From an uncultured Bdellovibrionales bacterium (GTDB lineage: Bacteria > Patescibacteriota > Minisyncoccia > Moranbacterales > UBA1568), in the NCBI GenBank assembly GCA_964530135.1, contig CAZGXN010000004.1:15983-79982 (forward strand): a DNA stretch of 64,000 nt, written 5' to 3'. The notes beneath the pieces are model-generated. The model saw only the letters and a list, made by a program, of their open reading frames with translations, was not told the DNA's origin and ran no database searches. Numbering within the stretch: position 1 is the first letter of the stretch; each line of letters begins with the position of its first letter. This document shows positions 5,880 to 37,933 of this stretch, one piece after another. Position numbers and translations under genes: made by a program.

Positions 5880-7190
5880 GTGAGTATGCAAGATAATAAT
5901 GATTTCAATGTTTCTAAAGATGTCGGCACATCACCCAAGGTTGTTGTACCGGAACCCGCTGTTGTTCGTTCGACTTCTTCAGCACCTGTTTCGTCAGTTC
6001 GGTGGATATATATCATGTTCGTGGCAGCTTTCTTTGGTTTGGTAGGTGGATACGTAGCGCAAATAACAGATACACCTGCCGCTATTACAAAACTGCTTCG
6101 TCCTCAGTCGTCGGTGTCGCGTGAGTATTCGGAGACAAGTCAGCGGCCCGTTTTGTCACCGGAGGATCAAACCATTGTTAGGGTGGTGGAGGAGAGTGCT
6201 CCGGCTGTGGTGAGTATTGTCATTACAAAAGATGTCCCAAAGGCTCGGAGCTTCTTTGGGTTTCCCTTTTTCCGCGGCCAATCCGGTATGGGTGGGGAAG
6301 AGAATCAGTCGACACGGCAGACAGTTGGCCATGGTTCCGGGTTTTTTGTGAGTCCGGACGGGTATATTGTTACCAATAAGCATGTTGTGTCCGATACCAA
6401 GGCTGAATACACGGTTATTACGAGTGATCGGCAGGAATTTCCGGCAACAGTGTTGGCGCTTGACCCGGTCAATGATGTGGCAATTATCAAAGTCAACGGC
6501 GATGCTTTTCCAGCTCTGAGGCTTGGTGATTCAGATGCACTACGCGTCGGTCAGACGGCGCTTGCCATTGGCAATCCCCTTGGTGAATTTGCCAATTCAG
6601 TTTCACGGGGCATTGTTTCTGGTCTCAAACGGCAGGTGACGGCTGGGATTTCATACGGACAAGAGGAAGTCCTTCGGGATATTATCCAGACGGATGCTGC
6701 AATCAATCCCGGGAATTCAGGAGGGCCACTCCTTAATCTTTCAGGCGAGGTCATTGGCATCAATGTCGCTGTGGTGAGTGGTGCTGAGAATATCGGTTTT
6801 GCTATTCCAGTGAACCAGATTAAACGCGCCGTGGATGAGGTGAAACAGACAGGCAAGATTGTGACGCCCTATATCGGTGTGCGTTATATTATTTTGAATG
6901 AAGCTCTTGCCCGTCAGGCTGGACTACCCTTTACTTGGGGTGCACTTATCCAGCGTGGTGAGCAACTCACCGATCTTGCAGTGATTCCAGGCTCACCAGC
7001 GGATAAGGCCGGTTTGGTGGAGAATGATATCATTCTCGAGATTGATGGACAGAAAATAGATAGTGAACACTCACTGGCGAGTATTATCGGAGCACATCGA
7101 GTAGGTGATACAGTCAAGCTTCGGGTTTTTCATAAAGGCGATGAGAAAAATGTTTCGGTAACGCTTGAAGAGCGGAAAGTATCGAATTAA
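5880..7190 (+). CDS. htrA: HtrA/DegP family serine protease with PDZ domain
   Basis: Catalytic triad motifs are intact: TNKHVV (His), DVAIIK (Asp) and GNSGGPL (Ser). A C-terminal PDZ domain is present. Start is GTG 5880 or ATG 5886. Confidence 0.85.
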   Translation: MSMQDNNDFNVSKDVGTSPKVVVPEPAVVRSTSSAPVSSVRWIYIMFVAAFFGLVGGYVAQITDTPAAITKLLRPQSSVSREYSETSQRPVLSPEDQTIVRVVEESAPAVVSIVITKDVPKARSFFGFPFFRGQSGMGGEENQSTRQTVGHGSGFFVSPDGYIVTNKHVVSDTKAEYTVITSDRQEFPATVLALDPVNDVAIIKVNGDAFPALRLGDSDALRVGQTALAIGNPLGEFANSVSRGIVSGLKRQVTAGISYGQEEVLRDIIQTDAAINPGNSGGPLLNLSGEVIGINVAVVSGAENIGFAIPVNQIKRAVDEVKQTGKIVTPYIGVRYIILNEALARQAGLPFTWGALIQRGEQLTDLAVIPGSPADKAGLVENDIILEIDGQKIDSEHSLASIIGAHRVGDTVKLRVFHKGDEKNVSVTLEERKVSN

Positions 7191-12330: not shown

Positions 12331-13442
12331 AACTCGCTCTCCAAGTGAGTGATCTTGATCACACGCGTATTGACGGAACGCGGATCTATATCGCTGAACT
12401 CCTCAAGCGTTTTGGAGAAATCGCGCCCGAAACTGAGTTTTGGCTTTATCATAAGAACGCGTTTAACCCGGCTCTGGCTCCCCACGAGCGTTCGAATTAT
12501 GTAGAGCGCACGGTGCCATTTCCGTACGCGTGGATGCAAACTCGCTTTGCTTGGGAGATGTTTCAGCATCCGCCAGACCGACTTTTTCTCCCGATTCAGG
12601 CGGCGCCAATTTTCTTACCCCGTGGCCTACAGGTGACTGCTACGATTCATGATCTCGCTTTTCGACGATTTCCTGAGACTTTTCCGCGTCACCATCTTTG
12701 GAAACTTAACTTTATGCTTGAAACCGTGATTCGACAGGCCGATCGACTCATCGCTGTTTCTGCATCGACCAAGCGTGATCTCCTCGAATTTTTTCCCGAG
12801 ATTGAAGCGCAGCGTGTCAGGGTCATTCATCACGGTTTTGACGGGAATTTTTTTGGATCACCATTGGATCCCACTGATCTCTCGGTTCGACTGCATTCCT
12901 TTGCCCTTCGTCCTAAAACATATGTCCTTTCGGTCGGTGCACTGCAGCCAAGAAAAAATTTAGTTCGACTCATTGAGGCATTTGAAAAAGCAAAACGGAG
13001 CGCACCCGAGATGCGACTTGTATTGACGGGTGAACCAGCCTGGCTTTCTCAATCGATTTTTGCAGCGCGAGAAAAAAGCCGTTTCAGAGAGGATATTGTT
13101 TTTACGGGGAGTGTCGACTCGGCTGATCTCCGCGCCCTCTATCAGGGTGCGCGAGTATTTGCATTTCCATCACTGTATGAGGGTTTTGGGCTTCCGATTC
13201 TCGAAGCATTTGCAGCTGGAACACCCGTGCTCACGGGGGATAATTCTAGTTTGCGGGAGGTTGCAGGTGAGGGTGCGCTGTATGCTGATGTAACAAACCC
13301 TTCCGATATCAGTGAAAAACTTTATCAACTTTGGAGCGATGAGATACTCGGTCATGAGCTTCGAGGGTATGCGCAAAATGAGCTCAAGCGTTTTTCTTGG
13401 GATCAGACTGCAGCAAAAACCCTTGAAGCTATCATCGGTTAG
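12327..13442 (+). CDS. glycosyltransferase family 4 (GT1 fold)
   Basis: The EX7E region EGFGLPILEAFAAGTPVL is present. ATGA overlap with ispH. Confidence 0.8.
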   Translation: MKLALQVSDLDHTRIDGTRIYIAELLKRFGEIAPETEFWLYHKNAFNPALAPHERSNYVERTVPFPYAWMQTRFAWEMFQHPPDRLFLPIQAAPIFLPRGLQVTATIHDLAFRRFPETFPRHHLWKLNFMLETVIRQADRLIAVSASTKRDLLEFFPEIEAQRVRVIHHGFDGNFFGSPLDPTDLSVRLHSFALRPKTYVLSVGALQPRKNLVRLIEAFEKAKRSAPEMRLVLTGEPAWLSQSIFAAREKSRFREDIVFTGSVDSADLRALYQGARVFAFPSLYEGFGLPILEAFAAGTPVLTGDNSSLREVAGEGALYADVTNPSDISEKLYQLWSDEILGHELRGYAQNELKRFSWDQTAAKTLEAIIG

Positions 13443-13855
13443 CGGGTGTGTCGGAACAGGGTGAAAAAAAGCCATCCGATAGACAGGTAGCCACCGAGAA
13501 TAATTGGGATGCTCCACCCAGGGAACCGGTATTGAGCAAATGTAAGAATACCCAATCCAACAATACCGCAGAGGGTGAGGAGTGGTCGGTAGTTACTTTT
13601 TTCTAGAGCATTTTCTGTTCTGCCGAGGAGTCGACCAAGCCACACAAGGAGTGCAGTGAGGATTAAGAGTAAGAGAGAGAACTTTACTAATGAAAGCCGA
13701 GCGCTTACAAAAGTGGGGAGGAGTATCTCCATGGCCACGAGGCCGGTGAAAGTAATCCAGCCAACCAGTACCACATCGAAAAGGAGATTGGCAATGATTG
13801 CGAGTGAGCCGTTTGCTTTACAGCGCTTGAGAAAGTTGTTGAGTGAGGTATACAT
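13439..13855 (-). CDS. small membrane protein, hypothetical
   Basis: 138 aa with 3-4 predicted TM helices. It is the last gene of a minus-strand operon. Confidence 0.45.
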   Translation of the reverse strand: MYTSLNNFLKRCKANGSLAIIANLLFDVVLVGWITFTGLVAMEILLPTFVSARLSLVKFSLLLLILTALLVWLGRLLGRTENALEKSNYRPLLTLCGIVGLGILTFAQYRFPGWSIPIILGGYLSIGWLFFTLFRHTR

Positions 13856-13861
13856 AAACAG

Positions 13862-15016
13862 CTAGCGTGGAGTAAGTCCAAAGCGTGTGAAGAGACGTTG
13901 TTTCACTTGTGCGAGCAGTGTTGTCATATTTGTTCGGTCGAGGCGTGTCTCAAAGGCGAGTGTGAGTGTGGCGATGTCGATATCGACCATGCTGCCAGAG
14001 AGTGTGATCTCGTAGTCCGGTCCGATGGAACTCTGAAGTGGATCGAGAGTGAGGGAACAGTGTAAAGATCGAGAGAAAAGTGTCGGAGTAGCCGTACAGT
14101 GAGTGCTTTGTGAATCGTTTGATTCAAGAGCGCGGATAGGTTGCATCTTTGAGAGGAGAAACGTTTGATAGTCGCCATCCATAACCGGCCGGCGATAGCC
14201 ATTTTCTATAATAAAAAGAGTGTTGCTTTTCTGATCTTGAAAAAGTGTCCCGTCGGGATGAGGAGTGCCCATAAGGACAATCCGACCGCGCCGATAGATA
14301 CCTATATCCTCCGCACTGACAGGGATCACATCCTCGAAGCGATAGCCGAGCGCGAGAAAAATTTCAGCACTCCCAATCGGCCGTATTTCCGTCTCGCTGG
14401 ATACGACATAGATACCGTCAGCAAAGGAGAGAAGGCTGCCGACACGGAATCCAATAAATTCATTTGAGCGAGTGTACTGATTCTTCCAGTCGAGTGATCG
14501 GGGTTGGGCGAGTGAATTTGGATAGCGCGAAAAGAAAGCGGCCGGACTCACAAAGGGGTATAGTGTGCCAGCCCGAAGGGCATAGTAGGTCGTACCGATC
14601 TGATACAGTTCGGCAGCGGGGAAGTGCGCCACTGGTTCACCCAGAGGGAAGCGATAGGCCCGATACGATCTTTGAAGCGTGATGTCAAGGGTGTCTGGTA
14701 TGGCCGACGTTTTTTCTAGGTCGAGTGTGATAGAAAGCTGTGAAAAGTCTCCGAGCGGACTAGTGGACGCGATTAATTGGCCCGCTTGTTCCACCTTTCC
14801 ATTTGTCCGGGGTATGGATTTTTCAGAACGAGGGTCGAAGATTTTGTTTTTGCTTGATTGTGGATTGCGGAAATCAAAACTCATTGTTTGGGTGGGGAAG
14901 AGGAAGGTAGAGGCCAGTGCCACTCCAGCGAACATGAGGCTGAGAGCCAGTGCCATGCGGAATTTCCGGTAGCGGGATTGGAGCGATAGGGGAATGGGCG
15001 TAAAGGGCGGTTGCAT
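13862..15016 (-). CDS. hypothetical protein with N-terminal membrane anchor
   Basis: 384 aa with a hydrophobic N-terminus (ALALSLMFAGVALASTFLF). No recognisable motif. Confidence 0.45.
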   Translation of the reverse strand: MQPPFTPIPLSLQSRYRKFRMALALSLMFAGVALASTFLFPTQTMSFDFRNPQSSKNKIFDPRSEKSIPRTNGKVEQAGQLIASTSPLGDFSQLSITLDLEKTSAIPDTLDITLQRSYRAYRFPLGEPVAHFPAAELYQIGTTYYALRAGTLYPFVSPAAFFSRYPNSLAQPRSLDWKNQYTRSNEFIGFRVGSLLSFADGIYVVSSETEIRPIGSAEIFLALGYRFEDVIPVSAEDIGIYRRGRIVLMGTPHPDGTLFQDQKSNTLFIIENGYRRPVMDGDYQTFLLSKMQPIRALESNDSQSTHCTATPTLFSRSLHCSLTLDPLQSSIGPDYEITLSGSMVDIDIATLTLAFETRLDRTNMTTLLAQVKQRLFTRFGLTPR

Positions 15017-15023
15017 ATAGTAC

Positions 15024-16763
15024 CTAAGGGGTTACTTCAAAGAGAAGGGCATCACTCTTTACGATGGATGTTTCTGGCCAAGCGAATGCTGATGGGACAA
15101 TCAGGGTTGGGGAGGAGAATGAAATAACATCTCTTGGAATGAGGCGGGTGTCAAAGACTTCTGCATAGCGACTGAGACTCTCCGCGGTTGTGAGGAGATA
15201 GGTGTGTTCAAAGGCATGACGATCAATGCGCGAATAGTCCTCGGGATTGAAAAAATAAACAGCGTTTTTCCCGTCGAGGGTGGCGAGTGGTCCAGTGATC
15301 ATCGCAAATGGATCACCGGTAGATCCGCGATCGATAAGAATCAAATCACGGTCGCCAAACTGTTGACCCAGGCTGAGTGTTTGTTCATAGAGCGTCTGAT
15401 ACTCGACGGTTTTGAGTGCTTGAAAACTGGGGGGTATTTGAAAAATGAATAGGAAACTGAAACAGACGGCAGCAAAGAGTTTTTTCTGGCCATCTCCGAG
15501 TTTCGTTTCGAGAGAGTCCCAGAGAACGACAGTCGCGAGGAGGAAAAGAGGAAAGAGGGTAAATGCATAGCGACGCAGGAGCCAGGGATGGTCGTCGGAG
15601 ATATGTCCATTGAGGAGATAGATGAGTGTCGGAGCTGCTAAGAGGATTGGAATAATAAGTCTGGTCCGGCGTTGCATAACCTCGAATATAAGAGCGGCGA
15701 TACCAAGAACAAAAAGAGGAAAAAGACCATAAGAAATGAGGATTGGTCCCAGATTTGGTTCGGTTCCAGCGCTGGTTCCGGCACTCAGTGTATGCCAGTA
15801 TTTGAGCGCAGCTTTTCCGAGCGTGGTATAAAATGGCAGATTCATGAAGAAGTCGCGAAGGAAGAGAAAGCTCAGAAAAAGAAGAGTTGGGACCGTCCAT
15901 TTCTTTGGGAGACGCAGAAGGTGATTTCGGAGCGTTGGTCGATAGAGAATGTAGGCGAGTGCGAGTGGGGCAATGACAAAGCCTTCGATGCGTGTGAGTG
16001 CAAGGAGGAATCCTGTAACAAGGAGAGCAGGAAGGAAGTGTGCATCGTTGTCCTGATGAAAATAGACCAGAGCAACCACCAGCGAGAGGAAAAGAAACAG
16101 TGCGAGATTTTCCGTGAGAGTGATTTGGGTGAGCCAGACTATAATGAAAGAGGTGGCGAAAAGAATAGTTCCGAGGAGAGCATTGCGGCGACTGACAAAA
16201 AGTGTAAGTAATTCAAAAAAAGTCCAGCCGGAGAGAATGAAAAGGAGGGCATTGGCGATGAGGAGGCCTGTAGGACCAAACCAGCTTGTGAAGATGCCGA
16301 GATAGGCAATATAGCCGAGAGGGAACTGCGTAATGAGCGCGCCAGTATCGGTGTAGCTGAACCCGGGAAAGTTTAGTGCTCGGCCAGGGCCATACACCGC
16401 AAAGAAGGCATCGGAAACCGGAGTCCGAAAAGCCAGCTCGTGTTGCGCTGCGAGCTCAAGACTAGCCAGAGCGATTGATCCCTGATCGCGACCGGTAAAG
16501 ACAGTCGGCTCTGTTCTGATTGCGATGAATATCGCCCCGAGAGTGAGCACACCGATCAGAATGAGTCGTAGTCGATCATGTTTCTGATAGAGCACGACGA
16601 GACTGAGGCCAATACCACCGAAGAGGAACACAGCAGCACATAAAGTTAATCCTGGAGAAAACCAACCAAAGAGTGCTAATGTGAGCGCGAGGGTGAGGGC
16701 GAGAACAAAGCCAGAGAGTGTGATGAGCCAGGGATTTTGATTCGTGAGGGAGGAGAATTGCAT
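15024..16763 (-). CDS. polytopic membrane protein, GT-C-like (ArnT/PMT-type) glycosyltransferase candidate
   Basis: 579 aa with more than 10 TM helices over the N-terminal two thirds and a soluble C-terminal domain. This architecture is typical of GT39/GT83 enzymes. Confidence 0.45.
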   Translation of the reverse strand: MQFSSLTNQNPWLITLSGFVLALTLALTLALFGWFSPGLTLCAAVFLFGGIGLSLVVLYQKHDRLRLILIGVLTLGAIFIAIRTEPTVFTGRDQGSIALASLELAAQHELAFRTPVSDAFFAVYGPGRALNFPGFSYTDTGALITQFPLGYIAYLGIFTSWFGPTGLLIANALLFILSGWTFFELLTLFVSRRNALLGTILFATSFIIVWLTQITLTENLALFLFLSLVVALVYFHQDNDAHFLPALLVTGFLLALTRIEGFVIAPLALAYILYRPTLRNHLLRLPKKWTVPTLLFLSFLFLRDFFMNLPFYTTLGKAALKYWHTLSAGTSAGTEPNLGPILISYGLFPLFVLGIAALIFEVMQRRTRLIIPILLAAPTLIYLLNGHISDDHPWLLRRYAFTLFPLFLLATVVLWDSLETKLGDGQKKLFAAVCFSFLFIFQIPPSFQALKTVEYQTLYEQTLSLGQQFGDRDLILIDRGSTGDPFAMITGPLATLDGKNAVYFFNPEDYSRIDRHAFEHTYLLTTAESLSRYAEVFDTRLIPRDVISFSSPTLIVPSAFAWPETSIVKSDALLFEVTP

Positions 16764-16865
16764 AGTAGTCTCAGTATACGCAAAAACTGGTCGGGATTCA
16801 ATTTACGAAAGGCGGGCCAGACGGTACAATAAAGGAAATAATAGAAATATCAAACGCGCTCCAAG

Positions 16866-19319
16866 ATGAATTTTTTTCTGTGGTATTACACAATCGGTAT
16901 CCTTTCGATATCGCGGATTGCGGTGAATTATGTGCGCTATGTATTGCACCGGTTCAATGTTGCTGGACTTTCACGGACTCTGATTTCACCCTGGAAGCGT
17001 GATATCAGTTTTAATACTTGGCGTGGCTTTCATCCGGTTCTTTTTGCTCAGGCGCTCTTGAATAACATCATCACACGCATTTTGGGCGCGCTGGTTCGCT
17101 CAGTGGTACTTATCTGGGGTTTTGGGGCGATTGTGCTCATGGTTTTTGGGGTGTTGGGACTTTCATTATTTACAGTATTCGCTCCTCTATTACTCATTGG
17201 CGGCAGCGTGGTAGTCGGCTGGATTTTCGGAACGCTGGTTGGTATCATCACTTTTATTAGTGCACTCGGTGTAGTCATCGTTGCGGTTTTTGCTTGGCAG
17301 GCATCACTGCGTGATCAGACAAACTACAATAGCCAAGAGCCGGAACATGCACCTTGGCGTGATCGAGCATTGCAACGGCTTGGCCTGAATCCGAAATCGG
17401 TTGATATTGAAACGATTGCTCTCCCAGAAAAACGTGAGATTTTTCTTTTGGCTCAGCGGATTGCCCCTGAACTTTTTGAGGAAGCTTGGGATATTGAAGC
17501 AGCCGCTTTTAACGATCAGAAACAGGCGGCGCGTTTCTGGGAATGGGAACATCTCCGGAAAGCCACGCGGATCGGTAAGTATTGGGCTTATGCATATACG
17601 CCACACCTTGATCATTATGTGCATGATTTGTCGGAGCACGATTTCAGCCACTATCGGGACCAGGTATGCATCGGCCGTGAGAAAGTGATGGAAATGCTGA
17701 CGCTCACCCTATCCCGACCGACCGATAACTCAGTACTTTTAGTAGGTGATCCGGGTATCGGTAAACGCTCTATCATCCATGCGTTTGCCCGTCGGATTCG
17801 TGAAAATTATTTTACCGCCCCGATCATTGATGAGGCACGAATAGTTATTTTTGATCTCGGGCAGGTTATTTCAGATGCCCGAACACGCGGGATAGATCCA
17901 AAGGGTCTCTCGCGTGAACTCCTGAATGAAGCGGTGTATGCAGGCAATGTCGTTCTCGTCATTGAAAATATCAATTTTTTTCTTGATCCTGAAAATGATA
18001 TGGCTTTGGGGGATGTCTTGAATGAGTATTTGGCACTTCCCACCTGTCGGATTATCGGACTTATGACAAGTGAAGCCTACCATACACTTGGTCAACGCCA
18101 GATTCCGGCGCTCAAATATTTTGAGGCGGTTAGGGTGTCTGAACCAACAATCGAAGAAACACTAGTTATTCTTCTGGATACTTTTAAGACACTGGAACAA
18201 AAGCGACCAGTTTTCACATTGCAGGCATTGCGCGCCATTATTACGGGTGCCGAACGGTATAACTGGGAACTCCCATTTCCCGAGCGCGCCATTGACTTGG
18301 CCCAAGAGGTCCTTGTGTATTGGGAAAAACATCCTCATCTCGCTTCCATCGACCGCACGGTTGTCGAAGATTTTCTTGAAGAGAAGTCTGGTATTCCGAT
18401 GGGTGAAGCAAATGAAGAGGAACGCAAAAAGCTGCTCAATCTTGAAACATTGCTCCATGAGCGCGTAATCGGCCAAGAAGAAGCGATCAGACAGATGTCA
18501 GAAGCTTTTCGTAAAGCTCGGGCCGGCTTAGGGAATGATAAGAAGCCGATCGGCTCCTTTCTCTTCCTCGGCCCAACCGGTGTGGGGAAAACCGAAACAG
18601 CCAAGGCACTTGCTGCAGTGTATTTCGGTGCTGAGGAGCGCATGGTCCGGCTGGACATGAGTGAATTTCAGACACCCCAGTCAATTGATGAGCTTATCGG
18701 TTCAGCCGAAATGAATGTCCAAGGGCGGATGACAACACTTATCAAGGAGCATCCGTATTCTATCCTGCTTCTCGACGAGTTGGAAAAGGCCTACCCTCGG
18801 GCGCTCGATCTTTTTCTCCAGATTCTCGACGAGGGGTATGTGACAGATGGTTTTGGTCATAAGGTAAGTTTCCGGAATGCGATTATTATTGCGACCTCAA
18901 ATGCTGGTGCCAACCTCATTCATGAGGCGACGGGTGCGGGCCGATCAATGATTGAGATTGAGGGCGCGCTCATTGATTCCATCATTGCTCAAGGTATTTT
19001 TCGGCCAGAGTTTCTCAATCGTTTTGATGGTGTCATTGTGTTCAATGCGTTGACAGCTGAAGAAATGGAGCGCGTGACAGAATTGAAGCTCAAGTCCTTT
19101 GCTGACAGACTGTACCAAGAAAAGAAAATTCGACTCAGTTTTACACCTGAAGCGATCCGGACTATTGTGTCTCGGGGTTATGAGCGTGAGTTTGGTGCGC
19201 GTTCCATCAATCGTTATATTGCTGATGTTGTCGAAGATACGATCGTTAAACGACTACTCGAAGGAACGCTTGGCGAGGGGGCTGAACTGACTTTCACCGA
19301 AAATGATTTAGGTGAGTGA
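16866..19319 (+). CDS. membrane-anchored Clp/Hsp100-like AAA+ ATPase (degenerate D1, intact D2)
   Basis: Residues 1-140 contain about 4 TM helices. A D1-like region has the altered P-loop GDPGIGKRS. The C-terminal half is canonical ClpA/B D2: LFLGPTGVGKTETAKALA, sensor/arginine finger region, IIIATSNAG. Confidence 0.75.
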   Translation: MNFFLWYYTIGILSISRIAVNYVRYVLHRFNVAGLSRTLISPWKRDISFNTWRGFHPVLFAQALLNNIITRILGALVRSVVLIWGFGAIVLMVFGVLGLSLFTVFAPLLLIGGSVVVGWIFGTLVGIITFISALGVVIVAVFAWQASLRDQTNYNSQEPEHAPWRDRALQRLGLNPKSVDIETIALPEKREIFLLAQRIAPELFEEAWDIEAAAFNDQKQAARFWEWEHLRKATRIGKYWAYAYTPHLDHYVHDLSEHDFSHYRDQVCIGREKVMEMLTLTLSRPTDNSVLLVGDPGIGKRSIIHAFARRIRENYFTAPIIDEARIVIFDLGQVISDARTRGIDPKGLSRELLNEAVYAGNVVLVIENINFFLDPENDMALGDVLNEYLALPTCRIIGLMTSEAYHTLGQRQIPALKYFEAVRVSEPTIEETLVILLDTFKTLEQKRPVFTLQALRAIITGAERYNWELPFPERAIDLAQEVLVYWEKHPHLASIDRTVVEDFLEEKSGIPMGEANEEERKKLLNLETLLHERVIGQEEAIRQMSEAFRKARAGLGNDKKPIGSFLFLGPTGVGKTETAKALAAVYFGAEERMVRLDMSEFQTPQSIDELIGSAEMNVQGRMTTLIKEHPYSILLLDELEKAYPRALDLFLQILDEGYVTDGFGHKVSFRNAIIIATSNAGANLIHEATGAGRSMIEIEGALIDSIIAQGIFRPEFLNRFDGVIVFNALTAEEMERVTELKLKSFADRLYQEKKIRLSFTPEAIRTIVSRGYEREFGARSINRYIADVVEDTIVKRLLEGTLGEGAELTFTENDLGE

Positions 19320-19499
19320 TGAGACTTTGAATATAATTTCAACAACTCCCTTTTTTCCCTGACCGCTGTTACTTTTGGAACCGGAGATTCCTTGTACGGG
19401 GGTAGTACACCCCCGGGTGGTCAATTTCCTTTGAGGGGCTGAACATATCATTTGTAGGGAATTATGGGATTGGGAGCGGTGAGAAATGGAGGTGCTTGA

Positions 19500-20639
19500 G
19501 TGAGTGGAAGATTTCGGTTATACTGGGGTATCCTTGAACTTGCTTTTTTCACTATGCCCCTTTCCTGGACTCTTTTCTGGAAGCGCTTGTATGAGCAGTT
19601 TTTCGGCAATCTCACGCAGGACATCGGTATCGACCTTGGTACGGCGAATACTCTGGTGTATGTCCGTGGGCGCGGGATTGTCATCAATGAACCCTCTGTT
19701 GTTGCGATCAATCAACGGACAGGGCAAATTCTCGCTATTGGTCGGGAAGCAAAAAAAATGGTAGGAAAAACACCCGGGCATATCGTTGCGATACGGCCAT
19801 TGGTTGATGGCGTAGTCTCCGATTTTGAGATTACTCAACAGATGCTCCGGTATTTTATTGGAAAGGTTTCAGAGGGGAGATTTAAATTTCTCCGCCGGCC
19901 GCGAGTACTCATCGGCATTCCTTCTGGGGTTACCGAGGTAGAGAAACGGGCAGTGATCGAAGCGGCTATGAATGCTGGTGCTCGCCAGGCCTTTCTCATT
20001 GATGAACCGATGGCTGCAGCTATTGGTGGCCGCCTCCCTGTCATTGATGCGGCAGGCAATATGGTTGTTGATATCGGCGGTGGTACGACGGAAGTGGCGG
20101 TTATTTCGCTCGGTGGCGTTGTCATTTCCCGCAGTCTTCGGATTGCGGGAGATGAGATGAATGAAGATATCATTCGTTATTGTCGAGATGAGTTCAATCT
20201 CCTTGTCGGCGAGCGGACAGCAGAAGATGTGAAAATTGCCATCGGGAGTGCCTACCCGCTAAAGGAACGACTTCAATATTCAATTCGTGGTCGGGATCTC
20301 GTTTCTGGTCTCCCGAAAGAGGTTGTGATTACTGATGAACATGTGCGTGAAGCCCTTTCCCGATCAATCCGTATTATTGTGAATAATATAAAGACGCTCA
20401 TTGAGGAGACACCCCCTGAATTGGTCTCAGATATTATGCAGCGCGGCATTTCAATTTCGGGTGGGGGGAGTCTCATTCGCGGATTGGACAAATTACTTGC
20501 CGCCCAGACCGGTATGCCAGTGCGACGGGTTGAGGATCCATTGACAGCTGTGGTCCGCGGGACGGGTATCGTGCTCGATGATATGGATACGCTCAAAGAA
20601 GTGCTCATTGAAGACGAACAAGATCATCCGCTTTCTTAG
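19500..20639 (+). CDS. mreB: rod shape-determining protein MreB
   Basis: GIDLGTANTLVYV phosphate-1 motif and actin fold. GTG start at 19500 follows GGAGG by 8 nt; alternative ATG at 19554. Confidence 0.85.
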   Translation: MSGRFRLYWGILELAFFTMPLSWTLFWKRLYEQFFGNLTQDIGIDLGTANTLVYVRGRGIVINEPSVVAINQRTGQILAIGREAKKMVGKTPGHIVAIRPLVDGVVSDFEITQQMLRYFIGKVSEGRFKFLRRPRVLIGIPSGVTEVEKRAVIEAAMNAGARQAFLIDEPMAAAIGGRLPVIDAAGNMVVDIGGGTTEVAVISLGGVVISRSLRIAGDEMNEDIIRYCRDEFNLLVGERTAEDVKIAIGSAYPLKERLQYSIRGRDLVSGLPKEVVITDEHVREALSRSIRIIVNNIKTLIEETPPELVSDIMQRGISISGGGSLIRGLDKLLAAQTGMPVRRVEDPLTAVVRGTGIVLDDMDTLKEVLIEDEQDHPLS

Positions 20640-20642
20640 GTA

Positions 20643-21470
20643 TTGGAATGTATGAGTTCAACGCATTCTTTTTTTCAAAGAAATATTGTTCGAGCCATCA
20701 TCGCCAGTGGATTGGTGTGGTTTTTCATCACATTGGTACCAAATTCATTGCTCGTCCCGTTTCGATCGCTGCTCGCCCCAGTCGCAGCTCCTTTTCAAGG
20801 ATTCTTCTCCTGGGTTGCCTTTGAGACGAGAGATACTTTCCGTTTTCTCACTTCTGTGAGTGATTTGAAACAGGAAAATGATTACTTACTTCGTGAGAAT
20901 CAGCGGCTCAGGCATGAAGTGGCTCTCTCTCTTGAATTAAAAGAGGAAAATCGTATTCTCCGTGAAATCAGCGGACTACCGAAAATCGGAAGTGGTACGC
21001 TGCTTTTGGCTGAAGTGATCAGTCGCGACCGGAAAGAGAACACGTTTTCCTTTACTCTGAATCGGGGGAGTACGGATGGTGTCCAACCAGGGCTTCCGGT
21101 GGTCGTAGGTAGTGGTCAATTAGTTGGGCGGATCGCAACGGCAGAATTGACAAGCTCTCGCGTGCATCTCCTGTCTCACCCCGAAAGTACGATCGCCGCC
21201 CGTATTGCAGGAACCTCTATTCAGGGAGTGGTTCGTGGGGATCATGGCCTGGGACTTATTTTTGATATGGCCCTTTCGGGTGAGCGACTTGAACCAGGTG
21301 TCGCACTCGTAACCTCTGGTTTGGGTGACGATTTACCAAAAGGCTTGTACATCGGTACTATCGGTGAAGTGCGCCCGTCGGCTGACCGACTCTTCCAACA
21401 AGCAACGATTGTAACGGGCTCAGTTGAGAGCGATATTCGCTTCGCTTCGATTATTCTCTCACCAGTATGA
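20643..21470 (+). CDS. mreC: rod shape-determining protein MreC
   Basis: TM helix, coiled coil (LKQENDYLLRENQRLRHEVALSLELKEENRILRE) and a C-terminal beta domain. Its position after mreB supports the call. Confidence 0.7.
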   Translation: MECMSSTHSFFQRNIVRAIIASGLVWFFITLVPNSLLVPFRSLLAPVAAPFQGFFSWVAFETRDTFRFLTSVSDLKQENDYLLRENQRLRHEVALSLELKEENRILREISGLPKIGSGTLLLAEVISRDRKENTFSFTLNRGSTDGVQPGLPVVVGSGQLVGRIATAELTSSRVHLLSHPESTIAARIAGTSIQGVVRGDHGLGLIFDMALSGERLEPGVALVTSGLGDDLPKGLYIGTIGEVRPSADRLFQQATIVTGSVESDIRFASIILSPV

Positions 21471-21970
21471 GTATTTTTTTTCAGCGTTTTTTTCTCCTTC
21501 TCTTGGCGGCGATCATTCAACGCTCTTTCCTTGATATTCTTTGGCCAACCCACGAAGCTCCAGTGCTGATCATTGCCGTTATTATTTCGCTCGTCTTTCT
21601 CTTTGGGTTTGCTCGCGGACTTGGCTGGGTGCTTTTGACGATTTTCCTTTATACTCTTCTCGGTGATACGGAAACTTTTCCGGTCTTTGCGGTGGGAATT
21701 GCCTATGGAACAAGTTTTCTCTCACGACGACTCGTTATCGAGCGTTGGGGAGAGAGTAGTTTCGGACTCTCTTTGGTTGCAGCTGTTTCGGTTATACTGT
21801 ATCTGTTCTTTCTCACAGTCGGTCGGGGAATAGAAATCACAACGCTTATGGTCATCGCAAATATGGTTGCGGCACTGATCGTGTTCCCACTGGTTTTTAG
21901 CATCATGCGCGTTCGGGAGAAGCAAATCCAAGAGAGTCTTCGATCAGAATTCCGTGGTTTACGAACATAG
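21467..21970 (+). CDS. mreD: rod shape-determining protein MreD (polytopic membrane)
   Basis: 167 aa with 4-5 TM helices. It overlaps the mreC stop and precedes mrdA. Confidence 0.5.
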   Translation: MSIFFQRFFLLLLAAIIQRSFLDILWPTHEAPVLIIAVIISLVFLFGFARGLGWVLLTIFLYTLLGDTETFPVFAVGIAYGTSFLSRRLVIERWGESSFGLSLVAAVSVILYLFFLTVGRGIEITTLMVIANMVAALIVFPLVFSIMRVREKQIQESLRSEFRGLRT

Positions 21971-21973
21971 CAT

Positions 21974-32270: not shown

Positions 32271-32293
32271 AGTGAAAGAAAGGAGAGCTCACC

Positions 32294-32410
32294 ATGAGCG
32301 ACCCAGTTGTCTTGAAACTGTCCAGGTATCAAGCGTGGGTCGCCTCAATCGACCCACCTTTATTCCTGAGTTCCCTCATTGAATTCATGGCTGAAGGAGG
32401 CCGAACATGA
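32294..32410 (+). CDS. small protein (38 aa), hypothetical, translationally coupled to LysM gene
   Basis: AAGGAG at 32279-84 then ATG 32294. Product is MSDPVVLKLSRYQAWVASIDPPLFLSSLIEFMAEGGRT. Its 3' end carries the GAAGGAGG SD of the next gene and the ATGA stop/start overlap at 32407-32410. Confidence 0.25.
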   Translation: MSDPVVLKLSRYQAWVASIDPPLFLSSLIEFMAEGGRT

Positions 32411-34308
32411 CTGATCGAATCCCTCAAACCGGCACTCCTATCCTGGATGCCAAATCAAAACGTCCTGTCTGGCATTGGATCATTGGAGTCCTACTCCTCT
32501 GTTTCACGGCCTGGATTATCTGGGACATTAACTTCAATCAGGAGAAGCAACCCGTTCACTCAGTATCGCAGTCTGTCTTTGTACCGATTGCTGCTACTCC
32601 GAGTGCTTCGGCACCGGAAACAGTGGCTTCGACGGGTACGCCTGTACCTGTTGCACCGCCCAAGACCTACACAGTTGAACAGGGTGACTGGCTCTCGCTG
32701 GTTTTCCCGAACAATTGGAAGGCGGTGTGCGACCTGAACGCCAAAATCCTGAAGAAGGGTTGCAGCCACATTGTCGCCGGCCAAGAGTTGCAGCTCCCCG
32801 TCGGCGTCGAGCCAACGGAAAAGAGTGCTCGCGCCGCGAAGCCCAAAATGGTTAAGGCCCCCAGGCCCCAAACCACCACGGCTCCGATCGCTGCCACGCC
32901 CAAGACAAATGCTGCAGGCGAAATCCTGTATCGTCGCGTCGGCACAGCACCCTTGAATGGTTGCGGGAAGCGCGACATCGCTGACATCAGCCGCGATGCA
33001 TGGGAAGTGCTCGGTCTGTCGAAGGACGACCAGGCATGGCTCCAGCTGAACGCTGATCTCGCTAACGGTCCACGCATCAACATCACGGCCGCCGAAGGTT
33101 TGGCGAAGCTCGATACTGATACCCGCTTGGAACAAGTTACCTTCTGCCGCAAGGGCACGGTGGTCTCTCGGGGTCCCATGCGTACTGCGTGGGATGCCGA
33201 TCAAGCGGTCTATGGTGAGCGTTTCGTACTCCCGTCGGGCAAGGTGCTCGTCTGGATGCGGAATTGCTTTAACTGGGTCATCCTCCCCGAGGAGAAGAAG
33301 GAGCCACCTGCTCCTCCTCCGCCTCCCGCGGAGTCCCCAGTCGTGCCAACTCCGGCACCACCTACGCCGATACCCGAACCAAGTGCTTCCGTTCCGGTGG
33401 CCGAAGCGCCCAAGGGAATCTGTGACCGATTTGATCCGCACGCGGTCATCGGTCAGGAGTACGAGCCCAGGCATGACGGTGGCGATCGAGCTGATTCGAG
33501 CTATCTGTCGGCCGCACTGTTCTGCACCTGGTACGACGAAAAGCGTCAAGGGACTCACGGCCTCGGTCTGAGTCTGACTGCTTCTACTTGGAGCGGTACC
33601 GTCAATCAGCGTGCAGGAAAGTATCAGGGCAATATGCATCTGGTCGGACCGGCATACGAGTTCATCTCGGATAACGGCTGGGACGCAACCGTCTCAGTCC
33701 CGATGGTGGGCCGTCTCCACGAAAAGTTCAGTCAGGACCAGTACCGTTCACAGCGGGACTTCAGCCTGATCGGTCTTTCGGCCGGCTACAACAACTACGA
33801 ACGCCGCCTCCGCGGTGAAAAGTGGTTTCCCGAAACGCAAGTCTTTGGGACCTGGGCCAAGCCGCTTTCACGCACGGTCGCACATAGCTGGGAAGGTCAG
33901 CCGATTGCCGATACCGCGGAGCTTTCCCGGTTCGACACCTACCTCAATTTGGGGGTGCGTCAATGGCTGTACGAGACCGATGAATCGCTAGTGCTGCCGT
34001 ACGCACAGCTCGGCTATTTCCTCGAGTCCCCAGGATCTGAATCTCTCAGTGTTCGTATGGGCATCTCTGACCCCGCGAGAATCGTGGGTGTCGGAGTGGG
34101 GTTCGATCATGATCTGGAGCGTGGTGGTGATGTTGCGGCCTGGGGCTGGTGGCTGGATGTCGCGAAAGGCATCCAAGTCGGGCGGTCCAAATACCGTAAA
34201 CATCAGATCCTCGTCGATGCAGAGCGTCGCGGGATTACGGTCGAGGAAAACCGTCGAGGCTACATCGAAAGCATCCGCTTCGGTGAACCCAAGCCTGATA
34301 AGCAGTAA
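32407..34308 (+). CDS. LysM domain membrane-anchored protein with Pro-rich linker (island gene B)
   Basis: TM helix at residues 22-40. LysM-like YTVEQGDWLSLVF…IVAGQELQLP. Linker PPAPPPPPAESPVVPTPAPPTPIPEP. Unknown C-terminal domain of about 300 aa. Confidence 0.55.
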   Translation: MTDRIPQTGTPILDAKSKRPVWHWIIGVLLLCFTAWIIWDINFNQEKQPVHSVSQSVFVPIAATPSASAPETVASTGTPVPVAPPKTYTVEQGDWLSLVFPNNWKAVCDLNAKILKKGCSHIVAGQELQLPVGVEPTEKSARAAKPKMVKAPRPQTTTAPIAATPKTNAAGEILYRRVGTAPLNGCGKRDIADISRDAWEVLGLSKDDQAWLQLNADLANGPRINITAAEGLAKLDTDTRLEQVTFCRKGTVVSRGPMRTAWDADQAVYGERFVLPSGKVLVWMRNCFNWVILPEEKKEPPAPPPPPAESPVVPTPAPPTPIPEPSASVPVAEAPKGICDRFDPHAVIGQEYEPRHDGGDRADSSYLSAALFCTWYDEKRQGTHGLGLSLTASTWSGTVNQRAGKYQGNMHLVGPAYEFISDNGWDATVSVPMVGRLHEKFSQDQYRSQRDFSLIGLSAGYNNYERRLRGEKWFPETQVFGTWAKPLSRTVAHSWEGQPIADTAELSRFDTYLNLGVRQWLYETDESLVLPYAQLGYFLESPGSESLSVRMGISDPARIVGVGVGFDHDLERGGDVAAWGWWLDVAKGIQVGRSKYRKHQILVDAERRGITVEENRRGYIESIRFGEPKPDKQ

Positions 34309-34335
34309 GTCCAAAGTCGGGGGATTCTCCCGCAG

Positions 34336-34370
34336 GGCGGCGTCGAGCACATTCGACCCGCCTTTTTCTT
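34336..34370 (+). terminator. intrinsic terminator
   Basis: GGCGG-c-GTCGA gcacat TCGAC-CCGCC hairpin followed by TTTTTCTTTG. Confidence 0.55.
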
Positions 34371-34661: not shown

Positions 34662-35390
34662 ATGAAGACTCGCTTCATTACTTTTTTCTGGGCGTGCGCT
34701 ACGCTCATCACCCTGCCGAGCATTGTGCTCGCTCAGGCCACCAAGACCCTGGCTGTTCAGGGATATACCGACTCGGCTGGCAATACGCTGCCAGGCGGTG
34801 ATACCCGAATGACCGTCACTTCTGACGGCAAGACGACGACCATGCGGCTGGCCAACTTGTACGCTTACGGTGAAGCCGGCACACGGCCGGACGAGAATGG
34901 CAAGCGCGAGGCCTGGTATGGTGCCAATAAGGTGTACTTCGCCGGTGGCACTGTCTATGCCATGAAGCTCGGCAATGATTGGCGCGGCAGCCGTACGGCG
35001 GCCTCAGTCGATCTGAAGGCTGACAATGGGCTGGCTATCTTGGCTCAGGGCAAGATCGGCGACAATGAAGTTACGCTGACCTTCCCGTCGCGCAAGGCAG
35101 CGGCGAATGTCAAGTGGGACTGCCAGCCGCTCAATTACTTGCTCGTCAAAGCGGATGGCAAGCGCGCCTGGCTTGGCCACCCGGGCTGGGCGACGTCGAA
35201 CACAGCGTCAAGTATTGGGGACTTCACCGTTCTCGCGGACAATGACAAGCGGTTTCCGGCCCAAGCCGTCTGCTACGACGCCAATGGCCAAGTGGTCAGG
35301 TTGACGCCGGCGATGCGCGCCGAGCTGGCCAAGGTCATCCAGCCCCCGGCTGGTGCGAAGGAAGCAACTGCCCAGGCCAACGAGCAGTAA
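34662..35390 (+). CDS. secreted protein, hypothetical (island gene C)
   Basis: SD AAGGAGG. Signal peptide MKTRFITFFWACATLITLPSIVLAQA. No known domain. Confidence 0.5.
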   Translation: MKTRFITFFWACATLITLPSIVLAQATKTLAVQGYTDSAGNTLPGGDTRMTVTSDGKTTTMRLANLYAYGEAGTRPDENGKREAWYGANKVYFAGGTVYAMKLGNDWRGSRTAASVDLKADNGLAILAQGKIGDNEVTLTFPSRKAAANVKWDCQPLNYLLVKADGKRAWLGHPGWATSNTASSIGDFTVLADNDKRFPAQAVCYDANGQVVRLTPAMRAELAKVIQPPAGAKEATAQANEQ

Positions 35391-35414
35391 ATCAACTGTC
35401 TTCGCGGCCCACAC

Positions 35415-35652: not shown

Positions 35653-36213
35653 ATGCAATCCAAGTCTTTCGCGTTTCCCCATCGCCGTTTCGTCATCTCG
35701 CTTCTCTTTGCCTTTCTCATCGCGGCTGCGTTTGCGCTCGTCTCCAAGACGGCTCAGGCGCAGACCGTCGCCGGCTATCCCACCCAGGGCAGTTCAGCCA
35801 TCACGAGTGTCGTCTCCAAGAGCGCCGGCCAAGCCGAGATCACCATCACCGGCGTCGCGCTGAAGTCGGGCCTGTCCTACTGCCTTATCGGTGTCGGTCA
35901 CGGCAACTGGTACGGCAGTGCTACCCGGGTGCAGCTCGACAAGATCGGCTGCGCCCAGCCCGTCGGCGGCAAGGTCGTTGTCCCGATTCGTCTCGAGTCC
36001 AAGCGCTATGAGGTGAATGGTGCGACAATCGGCTATGTCCCGATCGGGGTGGACGCTGAAGGCAAGATTGCCACTTGGCCACCCAAGCCGACGGGCTCAC
36101 TGCCGTTCGAACGGTCGAATGGCACCAAAGACGACATCGTCGCTGTCCATTGGACGGCCGGCGGTATCGCGCAGCTCGCCACGGCCCAACAGGCCATGAC
36201 CATCAACGACTAG
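35653..36213 (+). CDS. secreted protein, hypothetical (island gene D)
   Basis: SD AAGGAG. Signal peptide …LIAAAFALVSKTAQAQ. No known domain. Confidence 0.5.
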   Translation: MQSKSFAFPHRRFVISLLFAFLIAAAFALVSKTAQAQTVAGYPTQGSSAITSVVSKSAGQAEITITGVALKSGLSYCLIGVGHGNWYGSATRVQLDKIGCAQPVGGKVVVPIRLESKRYEVNGATIGYVPIGVDAEGKIATWPPKPTGSLPFERSNGTKDDIVAVHWTAGGIAQLATAQQAMTIND

Positions 36214-36223: not shown

Positions 36224-36970
36224 TTGAACAAGCAATTCGCTGCCGCGCTCGTAGCACTTTCTCTGTCGGGGTTCGCCCTGGCTCAGAACTGCACGCGGGA
36301 CATGCCCGATCGTGTCATCCCACAGGCGGGCGATAAGGGTATCGCCATGTTCGCAGAAGAAACCGTCAAGGAAGAATACCGTCCTCCGAAGAAGATGGCC
36401 GAGCGCCAGTTCGACCATGCGGTTGGCATGTGGAACGCTGTGACGGCGTACCCCTGCGATCGTGGCCGGCCAGCAAACATCGAGTTCCAGAGCTTCGAAA
36501 TCGTCCGCCTCGATCCATCGACGGGCAAGCTCATCCCTGAGCTCACACTCCGGTTCGATGGCACGGGCGGCTCATCATTCGATGGTGGTGGCCAATGGCA
36601 CCGCTCGCCCGAGTGGTTCATCTCGGGCCAGCCCGAGCGCCAGCCGACGGTGGCCAGCACCCGGAGTAGCGTCTTCATGGTCGACCTCAAGTCGATCCCG
36701 AAGGCGATCGTCCACATGTGGACGAGTCGTACCCCGGCCATGGCAGGCCAGGTCTATGGCATTCGAGCGAAGGTCCGTGTTACTGGCGATGCACGTCTGC
36801 AGCTCGCCATGGACTATTGGAAGGGTCGCGACAGCGCCTACAACGGCTGGACGCCAGGTTGTACTGGGTCCAACAACTGTGAAGCCTGGCTCGGGGACTG
36901 GTACGGCGACACGGGTGGCAAGTTCGTCACCATCGTCTCGCCGCGCACGCTCCTCGGCAACTCCCATTAG
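36224..36970 (+). CDS. secreted Cys-containing protein, hypothetical (island gene E, paralog 1)
   Basis: TTG start 6 nt after SD AGGAGG and 11 nt after the gene D stop. Signal peptide. It shares conserved blocks with the downstream paralog (VTAYPCDRG; VRVTGDARLQLAMDYW; GWTPGCTGSNNCEAWLGDW). Confidence 0.5.
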   Translation: MNKQFAAALVALSLSGFALAQNCTRDMPDRVIPQAGDKGIAMFAEETVKEEYRPPKKMAERQFDHAVGMWNAVTAYPCDRGRPANIEFQSFEIVRLDPSTGKLIPELTLRFDGTGGSSFDGGGQWHRSPEWFISGQPERQPTVASTRSSVFMVDLKSIPKAIVHMWTSRTPAMAGQVYGIRAKVRVTGDARLQLAMDYWKGRDSAYNGWTPGCTGSNNCEAWLGDWYGDTGGKFVTIVSPRTLLGNSH

Positions 36971-37060: not shown

Positions 37061-37089
37061 TTGACAAAAGAATTATTTTATACTATTAT
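37061..37089 (+). promoter_or_regulatory. sigma70 promoter TTGACA-17-TATTAT
   Basis: TTGACA at 37061-66 and TATTAT at 37084-89, upstream of paralog 2. Confidence 0.5.
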
Positions 37090-37162
37090 CATATGTCATT
37101 TCCAGACACTTCCGTTTGGAAGTGACATCCCTTTTGCCCCTTACCAACAAGGAGTCATCGCC

Positions 37163-37933
37163 ATGCAGGCACACTGGAAACGACATTTTTTCACCCTCTT
37201 TATCGCTTTGGGAATGACCTCAGCTATGGCCCAGTCTCTGTACGAGGTCTGTCCGAGTCCGGTGCCAACTGCCAATCCAACCGTGCCGCAAGGTGTGGCG
37301 GCTGGTGATCCGGCATTCTTCGCGAGTGAAACTATCGCGCCGGAGTATCGGCCGTCGCAACTGATGGCCGACAACGGCTTCAACTACCTCGTCGGCATGC
37401 TGAACATTGTGACCGTGTATCCATGCGATCGCGGCAAAGCGGCGACGGTAGAATTGAAAGCGCTCCGCGTCATCCGCAAGGACCCAAACAGCGGGTATGA
37501 GACAGTCGAACAACTCGTAACATTCGGCAATGGATGGAATCTGCCCAATGGCCTGGTTTACAAGACCTTTTATCGCCAGCCGGGTTGGTTCACGAGTGGT
37601 GAGCCAACGATCCAGCCGACGCTCGTCGGAATCGGCAAACAGATTTATACGGTCAATGTGAAATCTATTCCGAAGGGTATCTACCATGCGTGGACTGCTC
37701 CGCGTGTGGCTGCTGTACCAGGCCATCCGTACTTCGTCGAAGTCGTGGTCCGTGTGACCGGCGACGCGCGCCTGCAGCTCGGTATGGACTATTGGCGTGG
37801 TAGCACCTCAGACTACACTGGTTGGACGCCAGGTTGTACTGGGTCCAACAACTGTCAGGCCTGGCTTTCCAATTGGCTCGGCGACACCCGCGGCAAGTTC
37901 GTCACCTGGCGTGCACCAAGCATGATGTTTTAG
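37163..37933 (+). CDS. secreted Cys-containing protein, hypothetical (island gene E', paralog 2)
   Basis: SD AAGGAG at 37149-54 then ATG 37163. Signal peptide FFTLFIALGMTSAMAQS. Conserved blocks VTVYPCDRGK, VRVTGDARLQLGMDYW and GWTPGCTGSNNCQAWLSNW are shared with paralog 1. A 32-nt stretch is identical between the copies. Confidence 0.5.
   Translation: MQAHWKRHFFTLFIALGMTSAMAQSLYEVCPSPVPTANPTVPQGVAAGDPAFFASETIAPEYRPSQLMADNGFNYLVGMLNIVTVYPCDRGKAATVELKALRVIRKDPNSGYETVEQLVTFGNGWNLPNGLVYKTFYRQPGWFTSGEPTIQPTLVGIGKQIYTVNVKSIPKGIYHAWTAPRVAAVPGHPYFVEVVVRVTGDARLQLGMDYWRGSTSDYTGWTPGCTGSNNCQAWLSNWLGDTRGKFVTWRAPSMMF

Follow-up and report, generated by a model that had tools for sequence, protein, structure and literature searches.

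A predicted membrane-anchored Clp/Hsp100-like AAA+ protein of Moranbacteria with a single complete ATPase site and no pore-loop tyrosines

Introduction

Clp/Hsp100 proteins are the textbook soluble threading machines. ClpA, for instance, has a soluble Clp_N domain, two active rings, tyrosines in its pore-1 loops and an IGL loop for ClpP. Here we describe a gene for an 817-residue relative of these proteins that is predicted to be built into the membrane. The gene lies in a stretch of 64,000 nucleotides (the window) of contig CAZGXN010000004.1, from assembly GCA_964530135.1 of an organism recorded as an uncultured Bdellovibrionales bacterium, and public records name its product "AAA family ATPase" or "ClpC".

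Membrane anchoring is familiar from other AAA+ proteins. FtsH, Msp1/ATAD1 and Bcs1 are single-module proteins of the classical AAA clade; aromatic pore loops are used by FtsH and Msp1, and FtsH in addition has an M41 protease. The protein described here would resemble them in that an N-terminal anchor holds the AAA+ ring at the membrane face for membrane clients; to our knowledge, none of the three has an Hsp100-type core of two modules, D1 and D2. Msp1 has been treated as a membrane-anchored AAA+ machine (PMC12793716). Torsins are Clp/HSP100-related, associate with the membrane through an N-terminal hydrophobic segment, have no aromatic pore loops, are thought not to thread their substrates and are paired with a degenerate AAA+-fold partner (LAP1/LULL1) that binds no nucleotide (PMC5425593). 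A search of the full-text literature turned up no account of a membrane-anchored bacterial Hsp100, nor any of the family to which the 817-residue protein belongs.

Our analysis, made from sequence comparison and structure prediction, points to a protein in which only D2 keeps a complete ATPase site, neither module keeps the aromatic pore-1 loop, and a conserved basic module and hydrophobic anchor precede the core. Because pore tyrosines, a ClpP loop and a DnaK-coupling domain are all missing, it probably works differently from its known relatives. We tentatively read it, at a little short of an even chance, as a lineage-specific membrane remodelling ATPase that would be driven by D2 and act independently of ClpP and DnaK, and not as a classical threading unfoldase.

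Results

Domain architecture and relation to Clp/Hsp100 proteins

The protein consists of four parts, namely a basic N-module, a hydrophobic anchor, a helical linker and a tandem AAA+ core of ClpA length without an M-domain (Table 1). Pfam assigned AAA_2 to residues 560-721 (E = 2e-41, 142 bits) and ClpB_D2-small to residues 729-808 (E = 2e-18, 66.6 bits), both above the cut-offs, and gave only weak, generic P-loop matches over D1. When PDB sequences were searched with phmmer, ClpB, ClpC and ClpA were matched weakly in D1 (~84 bits, residues 245-556) and strongly in D2 (~245 bits, residues 500-809). The protein is thus a member of the class-I Clp/Hsp100 superfamily by its tandem AAA+ modules with an AAA_2-type D2 and a ClpB_D2-small domain. 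Its scores lay far under the NCBIfam equivalog cut-offs, at 378 against 1232 for ClpB (TIGR03346) and 356 against 993 for ClpA (TIGR02639), and the same held for ClpV, ClpK and ClpG. No FtsH-type M41 protease domain is present in the Pfam assignment, in which ClpB_D2-small forms the C-terminus.

An AlphaFold2 model of the full protein, built on a 66-sequence alignment, had a predicted local distance difference test (pLDDT) score of 88.9 and a predicted template modelling (pTM) score of 0.80. Its AAA+ core was matched by Foldseek to ClpC, ClpB and ClpA protomers from substrate-bound hexamers (TMt ~0.8 and a root-mean-square deviation of ~4.4 Å over ~575 residues), with the best matches coming from ClpC/ClpE/ClpL. 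The original prediction of a membrane-anchored Hsp100/Clp-like AAA+ protein therefore drew support from Pfam, phmmer, Foldseek and hydropathy, with the topology remaining a predicted one.

The M-domain is absent. The alignment to ClpB breaks at the M-domain site, and the two Walker A motifs are 275 residues apart, where the ClpC reference has 337 and the ClpB references have 402-417. ClpA aligns in one unbroken stretch (query 268-810 with ClpA 188-733 by phmmer), and the D1-D2 distance is accordingly that of a Clp ATPase lacking this domain. Without this coiled coil, the protein has no coupling site for DnaK/Hsp70.

ATPase and pore-loop motifs

Motifs were read from an alignment with two ClpC references (P0101 and P0103), an actinobacterial ClpB (P0106) and two canonical candidate-phyla ClpBs (P0115 and P0117), and columns were counted over 73 sequences, one genome per species, with residue calls taken from the five commonest residues per column. 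The original prediction had noted that D1 keeps GxxGxGK but carries Arg where Ser or Thr is expected (GDPGIGKRS), and the alignment bears this out. Position 300 is K59/R13 of 73 and position 301 is K44/R12/H6/Q4/M3, so that Thr and Ser are not among the five commonest residues, which cover 69 of the 73 sequences. The degeneracy of D1 had been understated, however, since Walker B, the Arg fingers and the pore loop are lost as well. The Walker B pair DE has become [E/D][N/D/H], with N42/D15/H12/G2/Q1 at position 368 and Glu not among these five residues (72/73 sequences); the Arg-finger positions read K60/R5 (417) and Y29/F25/H7 (418); and the pore-loop column is variable (R/V/T/A/I), with KYRG unrecognisable. 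Judged by these columns, D1 lacks the residues for ATP hydrolysis and for substrate grip throughout the family, and the two hydrolysis-competent rings that characterise ClpA and ClpC are not found in the protein.

D2 is the best-conserved part of the protein, and the residues of its Walker A, Walker B, sensor-1, Arg finger and sensor-2 are shared by 72-73 of the 73 sequences (Table 1). Only selection for ATP hydrolysis would lead one to expect such a pattern, and by these motifs only D2 can be expected to hydrolyse ATP, in line with the single active ring that had been proposed. It also bears on whether the protein might be a non-enzymatic pseudo-Hsp100, serving as a scaffold or regulator by analogy with plant SMAX1/D53. 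The degenerate D1 and the loss of both pore loops would suit such a role, and a SMAX1 structure was among the weak PDB sequence matches, but the invariance of every D2 catalytic motif makes it very improbable.

The description of D2 as canonical ClpA/ClpB holds for its ATPase motifs and fails at the pore-1 loop. There, GSAE----MNVQG stands in place of the GSPPGYVGHEEGG of the ClpB and ClpC references, a deletion of 4-5 residues in which the tyrosine is gone. With D1 and D2 taken together, the aromatic pore-1 loops of the superfamily (KYRG in D1, GYVG in D2) are both missing. The D2 loop is among the least conserved stretches of D2 (columns 616, L/M/T/S/D; 617, G/N; 618, V/Q/I/L/T). The shortened, tyrosine-free loop was found in every transmembrane (TM)-anchored relative examined, including the distant P0093-P0100, P0105, P0107, P0194 and P0212; a further sequence, P0249, has a full-length loop but reads Lys at the tyrosine position. 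The canonical ClpBs of other candidate-phyla bacteria keep GYVG.

A ClpP-docking loop (IGL, IGF or VGF) was sought between sensor-1 and the Arg finger of D2, where the ClpC references carry an insertion with MGF (H-M-G-F). None was found: the query and the whole family have a short ClpB-like segment at this site, in agreement with the earlier remark that no IGF-type loop was obvious.

These results weigh on the earlier suggestion of a membrane-tethered unfoldase or disaggregase, which we keep as the main rival to a remodelling ATPase while considering it rather unlikely. On that account, D2 alone would thread misfolded, mislocalised or aggregated polypeptides, in the manner of Msp1, of FtsH without its protease or of ClpB without DnaK. 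The Hsp100 fold and the fully conserved D2 ATPase site are what such a machine would need, the anchor would put the ring where membrane clients are, residues 616 and 618 of the D2 loop are partly hydrophobic, and threading driven by a single ring is generally known from mutants of ClpA, ClpB and Hsp104. Threading is weakened by the absence of an aromatic residue from both pore-1 loops, by the shortness and poor conservation of the D2 loop and by the lack of an M-domain, a ClpP loop and a Clp_N domain; aromatic pore loops are conserved in Clp/HSP100 proteins and critical for their processive unfolding (PMC5425593).

The N-module, anchor and topology

On the Kyte-Doolittle scale (19-residue window), hydropathy exceeds 1.6 over residues 68-149, which form one long hydrophobic block with a charge-free core at about residues 80-146. 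In the AlphaFold2 model, helices at residues 3-29 and 32-37 are followed by a less confident loop (38-56) that bears the SPWKRD...W.GFHP motif, by two long helices (57-121 and 123-151), by small helices up to about residue 230 and then by the two AAA+ modules. The original prediction had made the first ~140 residues into about four TM helices. The hydrophobic block is real, but residues 1-79 are basic and non-hydrophobic (on average 10.3 Lys/Arg to 3.3 Asp/Glu in the family), and the charge distribution and the model favour two spans. Residues 80-122 are nearly free of charge in the whole family, and the segment that follows the anchor is charged. By the positive-inside rule both flanks of the anchor would be cytoplasmic, so that the spans should be even in number; two long spans would match the ~67 hydrophobic residues and the two modelled helices better than four. 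Hydropathy, charge bias and modelled secondary structure thus predict an integral membrane protein with cytoplasmic AAA+ domains.

Mean pairwise identity, computed by region across 73 species-level sequences, was 0.44 in the N-module (residues 1-79), 0.21 in the anchor (80-149), 0.31 in the linker, 0.41-0.42 in D1 and 0.61 in the large subdomain of D2, the highest value in the protein. By this measure the N-module ranks among the best-conserved parts of the family, and the anchor helices appear to be under little sequence constraint. The family motif of the N-module, W[YH]Y...N...F[SN]...L..TL.SPW[KR]RD...GF.P...N..SR..G..VR, is present in the 817-residue protein.

That the hydrophobic region takes the place of the usual Clp N-domain was upheld. 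Residues 1-263 gave no Pfam match to Clp_N even at E values up to 10, and hhalign comparisons with a Clp_N-bearing TM relative and with ClpC aligned only the TP.LD..DL motif that precedes D1. The N-module belongs to no Pfam family, nor do the small stand-alone homologues described below. When the N-terminal 263 residues were modelled separately (pLDDT 84.6), a Foldseek search of the PDB gave no fold match better than E = 3.

Gene call and start codon

The gene is one unbroken open reading frame. An identical protein is present in public collections (P0001), and ~90 protein clusters at 43-81% identity cover 100% of the query at equal length. The possibility that the start had been mis-called, leaving a spurious hydrophobic N-terminus, was examined directly. 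Sequence comparison indicates that the gene is real and the annotated start correct, because the homologues begin with the same MNFFLWYY-type sequence and the first 79 residues hold 13 positions that are invariant in a 23-sequence alignment (W6, G11, L35, T38, W43, R45, D46, G54, P57, N67, R71, G74 and R78). A joining of a small membrane-protein gene to a normal Clp gene by an error of assembly or annotation was also considered, since the N-module is a separate gene overlapping the ATPase gene in other lineages and a frameshift could mimic a fusion. The same uninterrupted frame of ~816 residues recurs in the ~90 clusters, however, and in a species-level genome scan, where the assemblies are independent, it is complete at 72 of 79 loci; the junction is a continuous hydrophobic segment that AlphaFold2 models with high confidence. 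We therefore rejected the artefact, whether as a wrong start or as joined genes, as scarcely credible.

Distribution and split forms

How widely the architecture occurs in public genomes was addressed by scanning 185,579 species, each represented by one genome, with patterns of the N-module. This gave 100 confirmed loci and places the family in at least 100 species-level genomes. Nearly all were labelled Candidatus Moranbacteria or Moraniibacteriota, a few Portnoybacteria, Pacebacteria/Paceibacteria, Minisyncoccota or Parcubacteria, and several lay in metagenome-assembled genomes labelled "uncultured Bdellovibrionales" whose loci are otherwise Moranbacteria-like. The loci in these last records (L007, L010, L012-L015 and others) are 65-78% identical to Moranbacteria genes, with the same gene order in L007 and L010; their taxonomic labels are probably wrong.

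An exhaustive HMMER search of 1.84 billion representatives (clusters at 50% identity) with an N-terminal profile returned 1374 clusters at E values up to 1e-3 and 572 at up to 1e-10; it superseded a word-index search with the N-terminal 255 residues, which had given two fragments only. Most of these clusters are Clp-like proteins of ~800-910 residues, and many are proteins of ~113-136 residues that match only profile positions 4-118. The architecture had been called unusual, which is true among characterised Clp proteins; within Moranbacteria it is the rule, and it belongs to a broad candidate-phyla family.

In L004, L005 and L088, stand-alone N-module homologues of ~125 residues lie directly upstream of, or overlap, TM-Clp genes (Table 1). 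In L086 the stop of the small gene overlaps the start of a downstream membrane-protein reading frame, which is ended by the contig edge. In one distant member, P0107, Pfam still finds Clp_N behind the TM helices. Because the N-module stands alone beside or overlapping TM-Clp genes in other candidate-phyla lineages, the Moranbacteria protein reads, from gene structure, as a Rosetta-stone fusion in which a small membrane protein has been joined to a TM-anchored Clp-like ATPase, which is good evidence that N-module and ATPase work together physically. We accordingly define a candidate-phyla family by sequence, comprising an N-module and anchor fused to or beside a Clp-like ATPase without pore tyrosines, to which the 817-residue protein belongs.

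Gene neighbourhood

The gene had been described as divergent from a GT-C operon. It is indeed divergent from an operon encoding a multipass membrane protein of 579 residues, an N-terminally anchored protein of 384 residues and a membrane protein of 138 residues (Table 1), but the GT-C label derives from a PMT_2 match under the cut-off (E = 0.0018), seen in 2 of 18 family members, and the 579-residue protein can be regarded as GT-C with weak support at most. This protein has an invariant GRDQG loop, and the 384-residue protein has conserved cysteines. No Pfam family was found for the 384- and 138-residue proteins, and family profiles of the 579- and 384-residue proteins matched no PDB sequence. 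In a consensus scan the intergenic region showed promoter-like sites on the + strand (TTTACG-17-TACAAT at 16802-16830) and on the - strand (16853-16826 and 16801-16773), which do not count as functional evidence.

Upstream sequence of 3.5 kb or more was available for 66 loci; the gene for the 579-residue protein was adjacent and divergent in 55 of them, and the gene for the 384-residue protein was found in 53. Orthologues of the operon at 33-49% identity have the same arrangement in two distant Moranbacteria (L002 and L003), and beyond the operon many loci have a GT4 gene and often ispH. The operon, syntenic across Moranbacteria, is in itself an uncharacterised envelope system.

This conservation raises the possibility that the protein is the energising subunit of a machine that assembles or exports an envelope glycan or polymer together with the operon products and GT4 enzymes, its anchor ring serving as part of a conduit or as a mechanotransmission device. 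The divergent arrangement in 55 of the 66 loci, kept although the proteins of the two neighbour pairs compared are no more than 33-49% identical, is in its favour, as are the upstream GT4 and IspH genes, GT4 glycosyltransferase genes downstream in L002 and L003, and envelope genes near distant homologues (PMT_2, MurT/GatD and Acyl_transf_3 in L005; mraZ, mraW and a PBP gene in L004). Against it, a specific channel would hardly be expected from an anchor that is the least conserved part of the protein, the neighbour is only weakly assigned to GT-C, and the synteny is missing both in several members of the family and in other lineages. We regard such a role as improbable.

Directly downstream in the window lie mreB, mreC, mreD and pbp2 (mrdA), at 19500-23827; no terminator-like site separates them from the Clp-like gene, and a promoter-like site stands at 19496-19524. 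To judge by the gene call on an identical contig, MreB probably starts at ~19554 rather than at the listed GTG (19500). The adjacency of mreBCD-pbp2 was rejected as a functional clue: it recurs only in L010, where these genes are 5.3 kb downstream, and in the other loci open to detailed inspection (L002 and L003) the Clp-like gene is followed by GT4 glycosyltransferase genes.

Other features of the window

Among genes for the envelope and proteostasis, the window also has those of an HtrA-like serine protease with PDZ (5880-7190), an RseP-like M50 site-2 protease (29358-30506) and SecA (54971-57631). Neither ClpP, ClpX nor a canonical ClpB was found among the ~30 larger reading frames of the window that were scanned with Pfam. 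A region of ~6 kb (32000-38000) has a GC content of 0.55-0.58 and near-zero GC skew, compared with 0.47-0.51 and about +0.1 elsewhere, and contains no rRNA. Its reading frames (32407..34308, 34662..35390, 35653..36213, 36224..36970 and 37061..37933) have no Pfam matches and mostly signal-peptide-like starts, and the region may be an acquired island of secreted proteins. The last two are adjacent paralogues with a conserved C-terminal region, …VTGDARLQLxMDYWxG…GWTPGCTGSNNCxAWL…GDTxGKFVT, to which no family was assigned.

Table 1 Features of the gene, its protein and its surroundings. Positions are those of the window, except for the stand-alone genes, whose loci are named.
Feature	Position	Strand	Basis
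Complete gene, 817-residue membrane-anchored (predicted) Clp/Hsp100-like AAA+ protein	16866..19319	+	stop codon 19317-19319; list of open reading frames
N-module, residues 1-79, basic, predicted cytoplasmic and helical, SPWKRD...W.GFHP loop	16866..17102	+	alignment, AlphaFold2, charge
Hydrophobic anchor, residues 80-146, probably a hairpin of two long spans	17103..17303	+	hydropathy, charge, AlphaFold2; topology inferred
Helical linker, residues 147-245, ending in conserved pre-D1 motif YAYTPHLDHY..DLSE	17304..17600	+	alignment
D1 AAA+ module, large and small subdomains, residues ~246-520, catalytically degenerate	17601..18425	+	phmmer, Foldseek, motif counts
D1 Walker A GDPGIGKRS, Lys kept, Arg for canonical Thr/Ser	17745..17771	+	alignment, counts
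D1 pore-1 position, SDARTRG for AGTKYRG, Tyr lost	17871..17891	+	alignment with ClpB/ClpC references
D1 Walker B VVLVIEN for hhhhDE, Asn for catalytic Glu	17949..17969	+	counts
D1 Arg-finger positions, KY for RR	18114..18119	+	alignment, counts
D2 AAA+ module (AAA_2 and ClpB_D2-small), sole ring with complete ATPase site	18426..19316	+	Pfam, phmmer, conservation
D2 Walker A GPTGVGKTE	18570..18596	+	G, G, V, G, K, T, E invariant, 73/73
D2 pore-1 loop IGSAEMNVQGRM, 4-5 residues short, no aromatic, variable	18696..18731	+	alignment with GSPPGYVGHEEGG of references
D2 Walker B ILLLDELE	18762..18785	+	L635, L636, D637, E638 invariant, 73/73
D2 sensor-1 N679, Arg finger R719 (FRPEFLNRFD), sensor-2 R779 (GAR)	18900..19202	+	N679 73/73, R719 73/73, R779 72/73
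Conserved divergent operon, candidate functional partner	13439..16763	-	synteny
579-residue multipass membrane protein	15024..16763	-	
384-residue N-terminally anchored protein	13862..15016	-	
138-residue membrane protein	13439..13855	-	
Divergent intergenic region, 102 bp, promoter-like hexamers on both strands	16764..16865	.	consensus scan only
Stand-alone N-module gene, L004	7606-7995		
Stand-alone N-module gene, L005	6967-7350		
Stand-alone N-module gene, L088	6634-7008		
Stand-alone N-module gene, L086	289-681		

Discussion

With ClpA the protein shares tandem AAA+ modules at the same D1-D2 spacing and the D2-small domain, but it has a membrane module in the place of the N-domain, a putatively dead D1, no pore tyrosines and no ClpP loop. 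ClpB/Hsp104 gave the best D2 sequence match (245 bits), likewise has no ClpP-binding loop and has a similar protomer fold; it differs in that the present protein has no coiled-coil M-domain, no GYVG pore loop and no Clp_N and is predicted to be membrane-integrated. As for ClpC/ClpE/ClpL, the short M-domain, the VGF-type loop and the adaptor-binding N-domains of ClpC are all missing here.

The nearest functional analogy appears to be the Torsin/LAP1 system, in that a degenerate D1 would be coupled with an active D2 at the membrane. This is an analogy of function and not of membership: Torsins are eukaryotic single-module proteins of the endoplasmic reticulum lumen without an Arg finger of their own, which a cofactor completes, whereas the present protein is bacterial, and membership fails because its modules are in tandem and its Arg finger R719 is invariant.

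A remodelling ATPase of this kind might work as follows. The ring would assemble beneath the membrane, on its cytoplasmic side, where D1 would serve as a non-hydrolysing scaffold that may still bind nucleotide, and hydrolysis in D2 would drive conformational work on a membrane-associated client or on the protein's own N-module and anchor. The basic N-module would sit where Clp N-domains bind substrates and adaptors. Action would involve neither ClpP nor coupling to DnaK, and a factor for remodelling or assembly with a short stroke seems likelier than an unfoldase that threads polypeptides processively. In Moranbacteria the most plausible clients would be the 579-, 384- and 138-residue products of the syntenic divergent operon, which would point to the building or maintenance of an envelope assembly.

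Several observations weigh against the remodelling ATPase and the choice of the operon products as its clients. Aliphatic residues persist at positions 616 (L/M) and 618 (V/I/L) of the D2 loop in many members, so that a weak grip on substrate is possible. The modelled helix at residues 57-121 is too long for a simple single span, which makes the geometry of the anchor uncertain, and oligomeric state and membrane topology alike come from prediction. The synteny of the operon is restricted to Moranbacteria and may reflect vertical inheritance in small, stable genomes; IspH and the GT4 gene are likewise syntenic, a sub-clade (L012-L015) has homologues at 60-67% identity without the neighbouring operon, and the neighbours differ in distant lineages.

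A more specific proposal, which we offer as doubtful, is that the candidate phyla possess a two-component membrane machine, made of the small SPWKRD protein and the membrane Hsp100-like ATPase and fused into one chain in Moranbacteria. It would be non-threading and Torsin-like, with D2 remodelling or energising an envelope-assembly complex encoded by the syntenic operon.

The Hsp100 fold is known; the architecture is new and the mode of action probably so, but no new fold or principle is involved. That pore tyrosines, ClpP loop, M-domain and D1 catalysis are lost while the ATPase site of D2 is perfectly kept implies a different route from ATP to work within the Clp/Hsp100 fold. Candidate-phyla bacteria, in which the family is widespread, have an envelope biology and proteostasis of which little is known. 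For these organisms, the fused and split arrangements point directly to a small membrane protein as partner of the ATPase, and candidate clients are offered by the conserved divergent operon.

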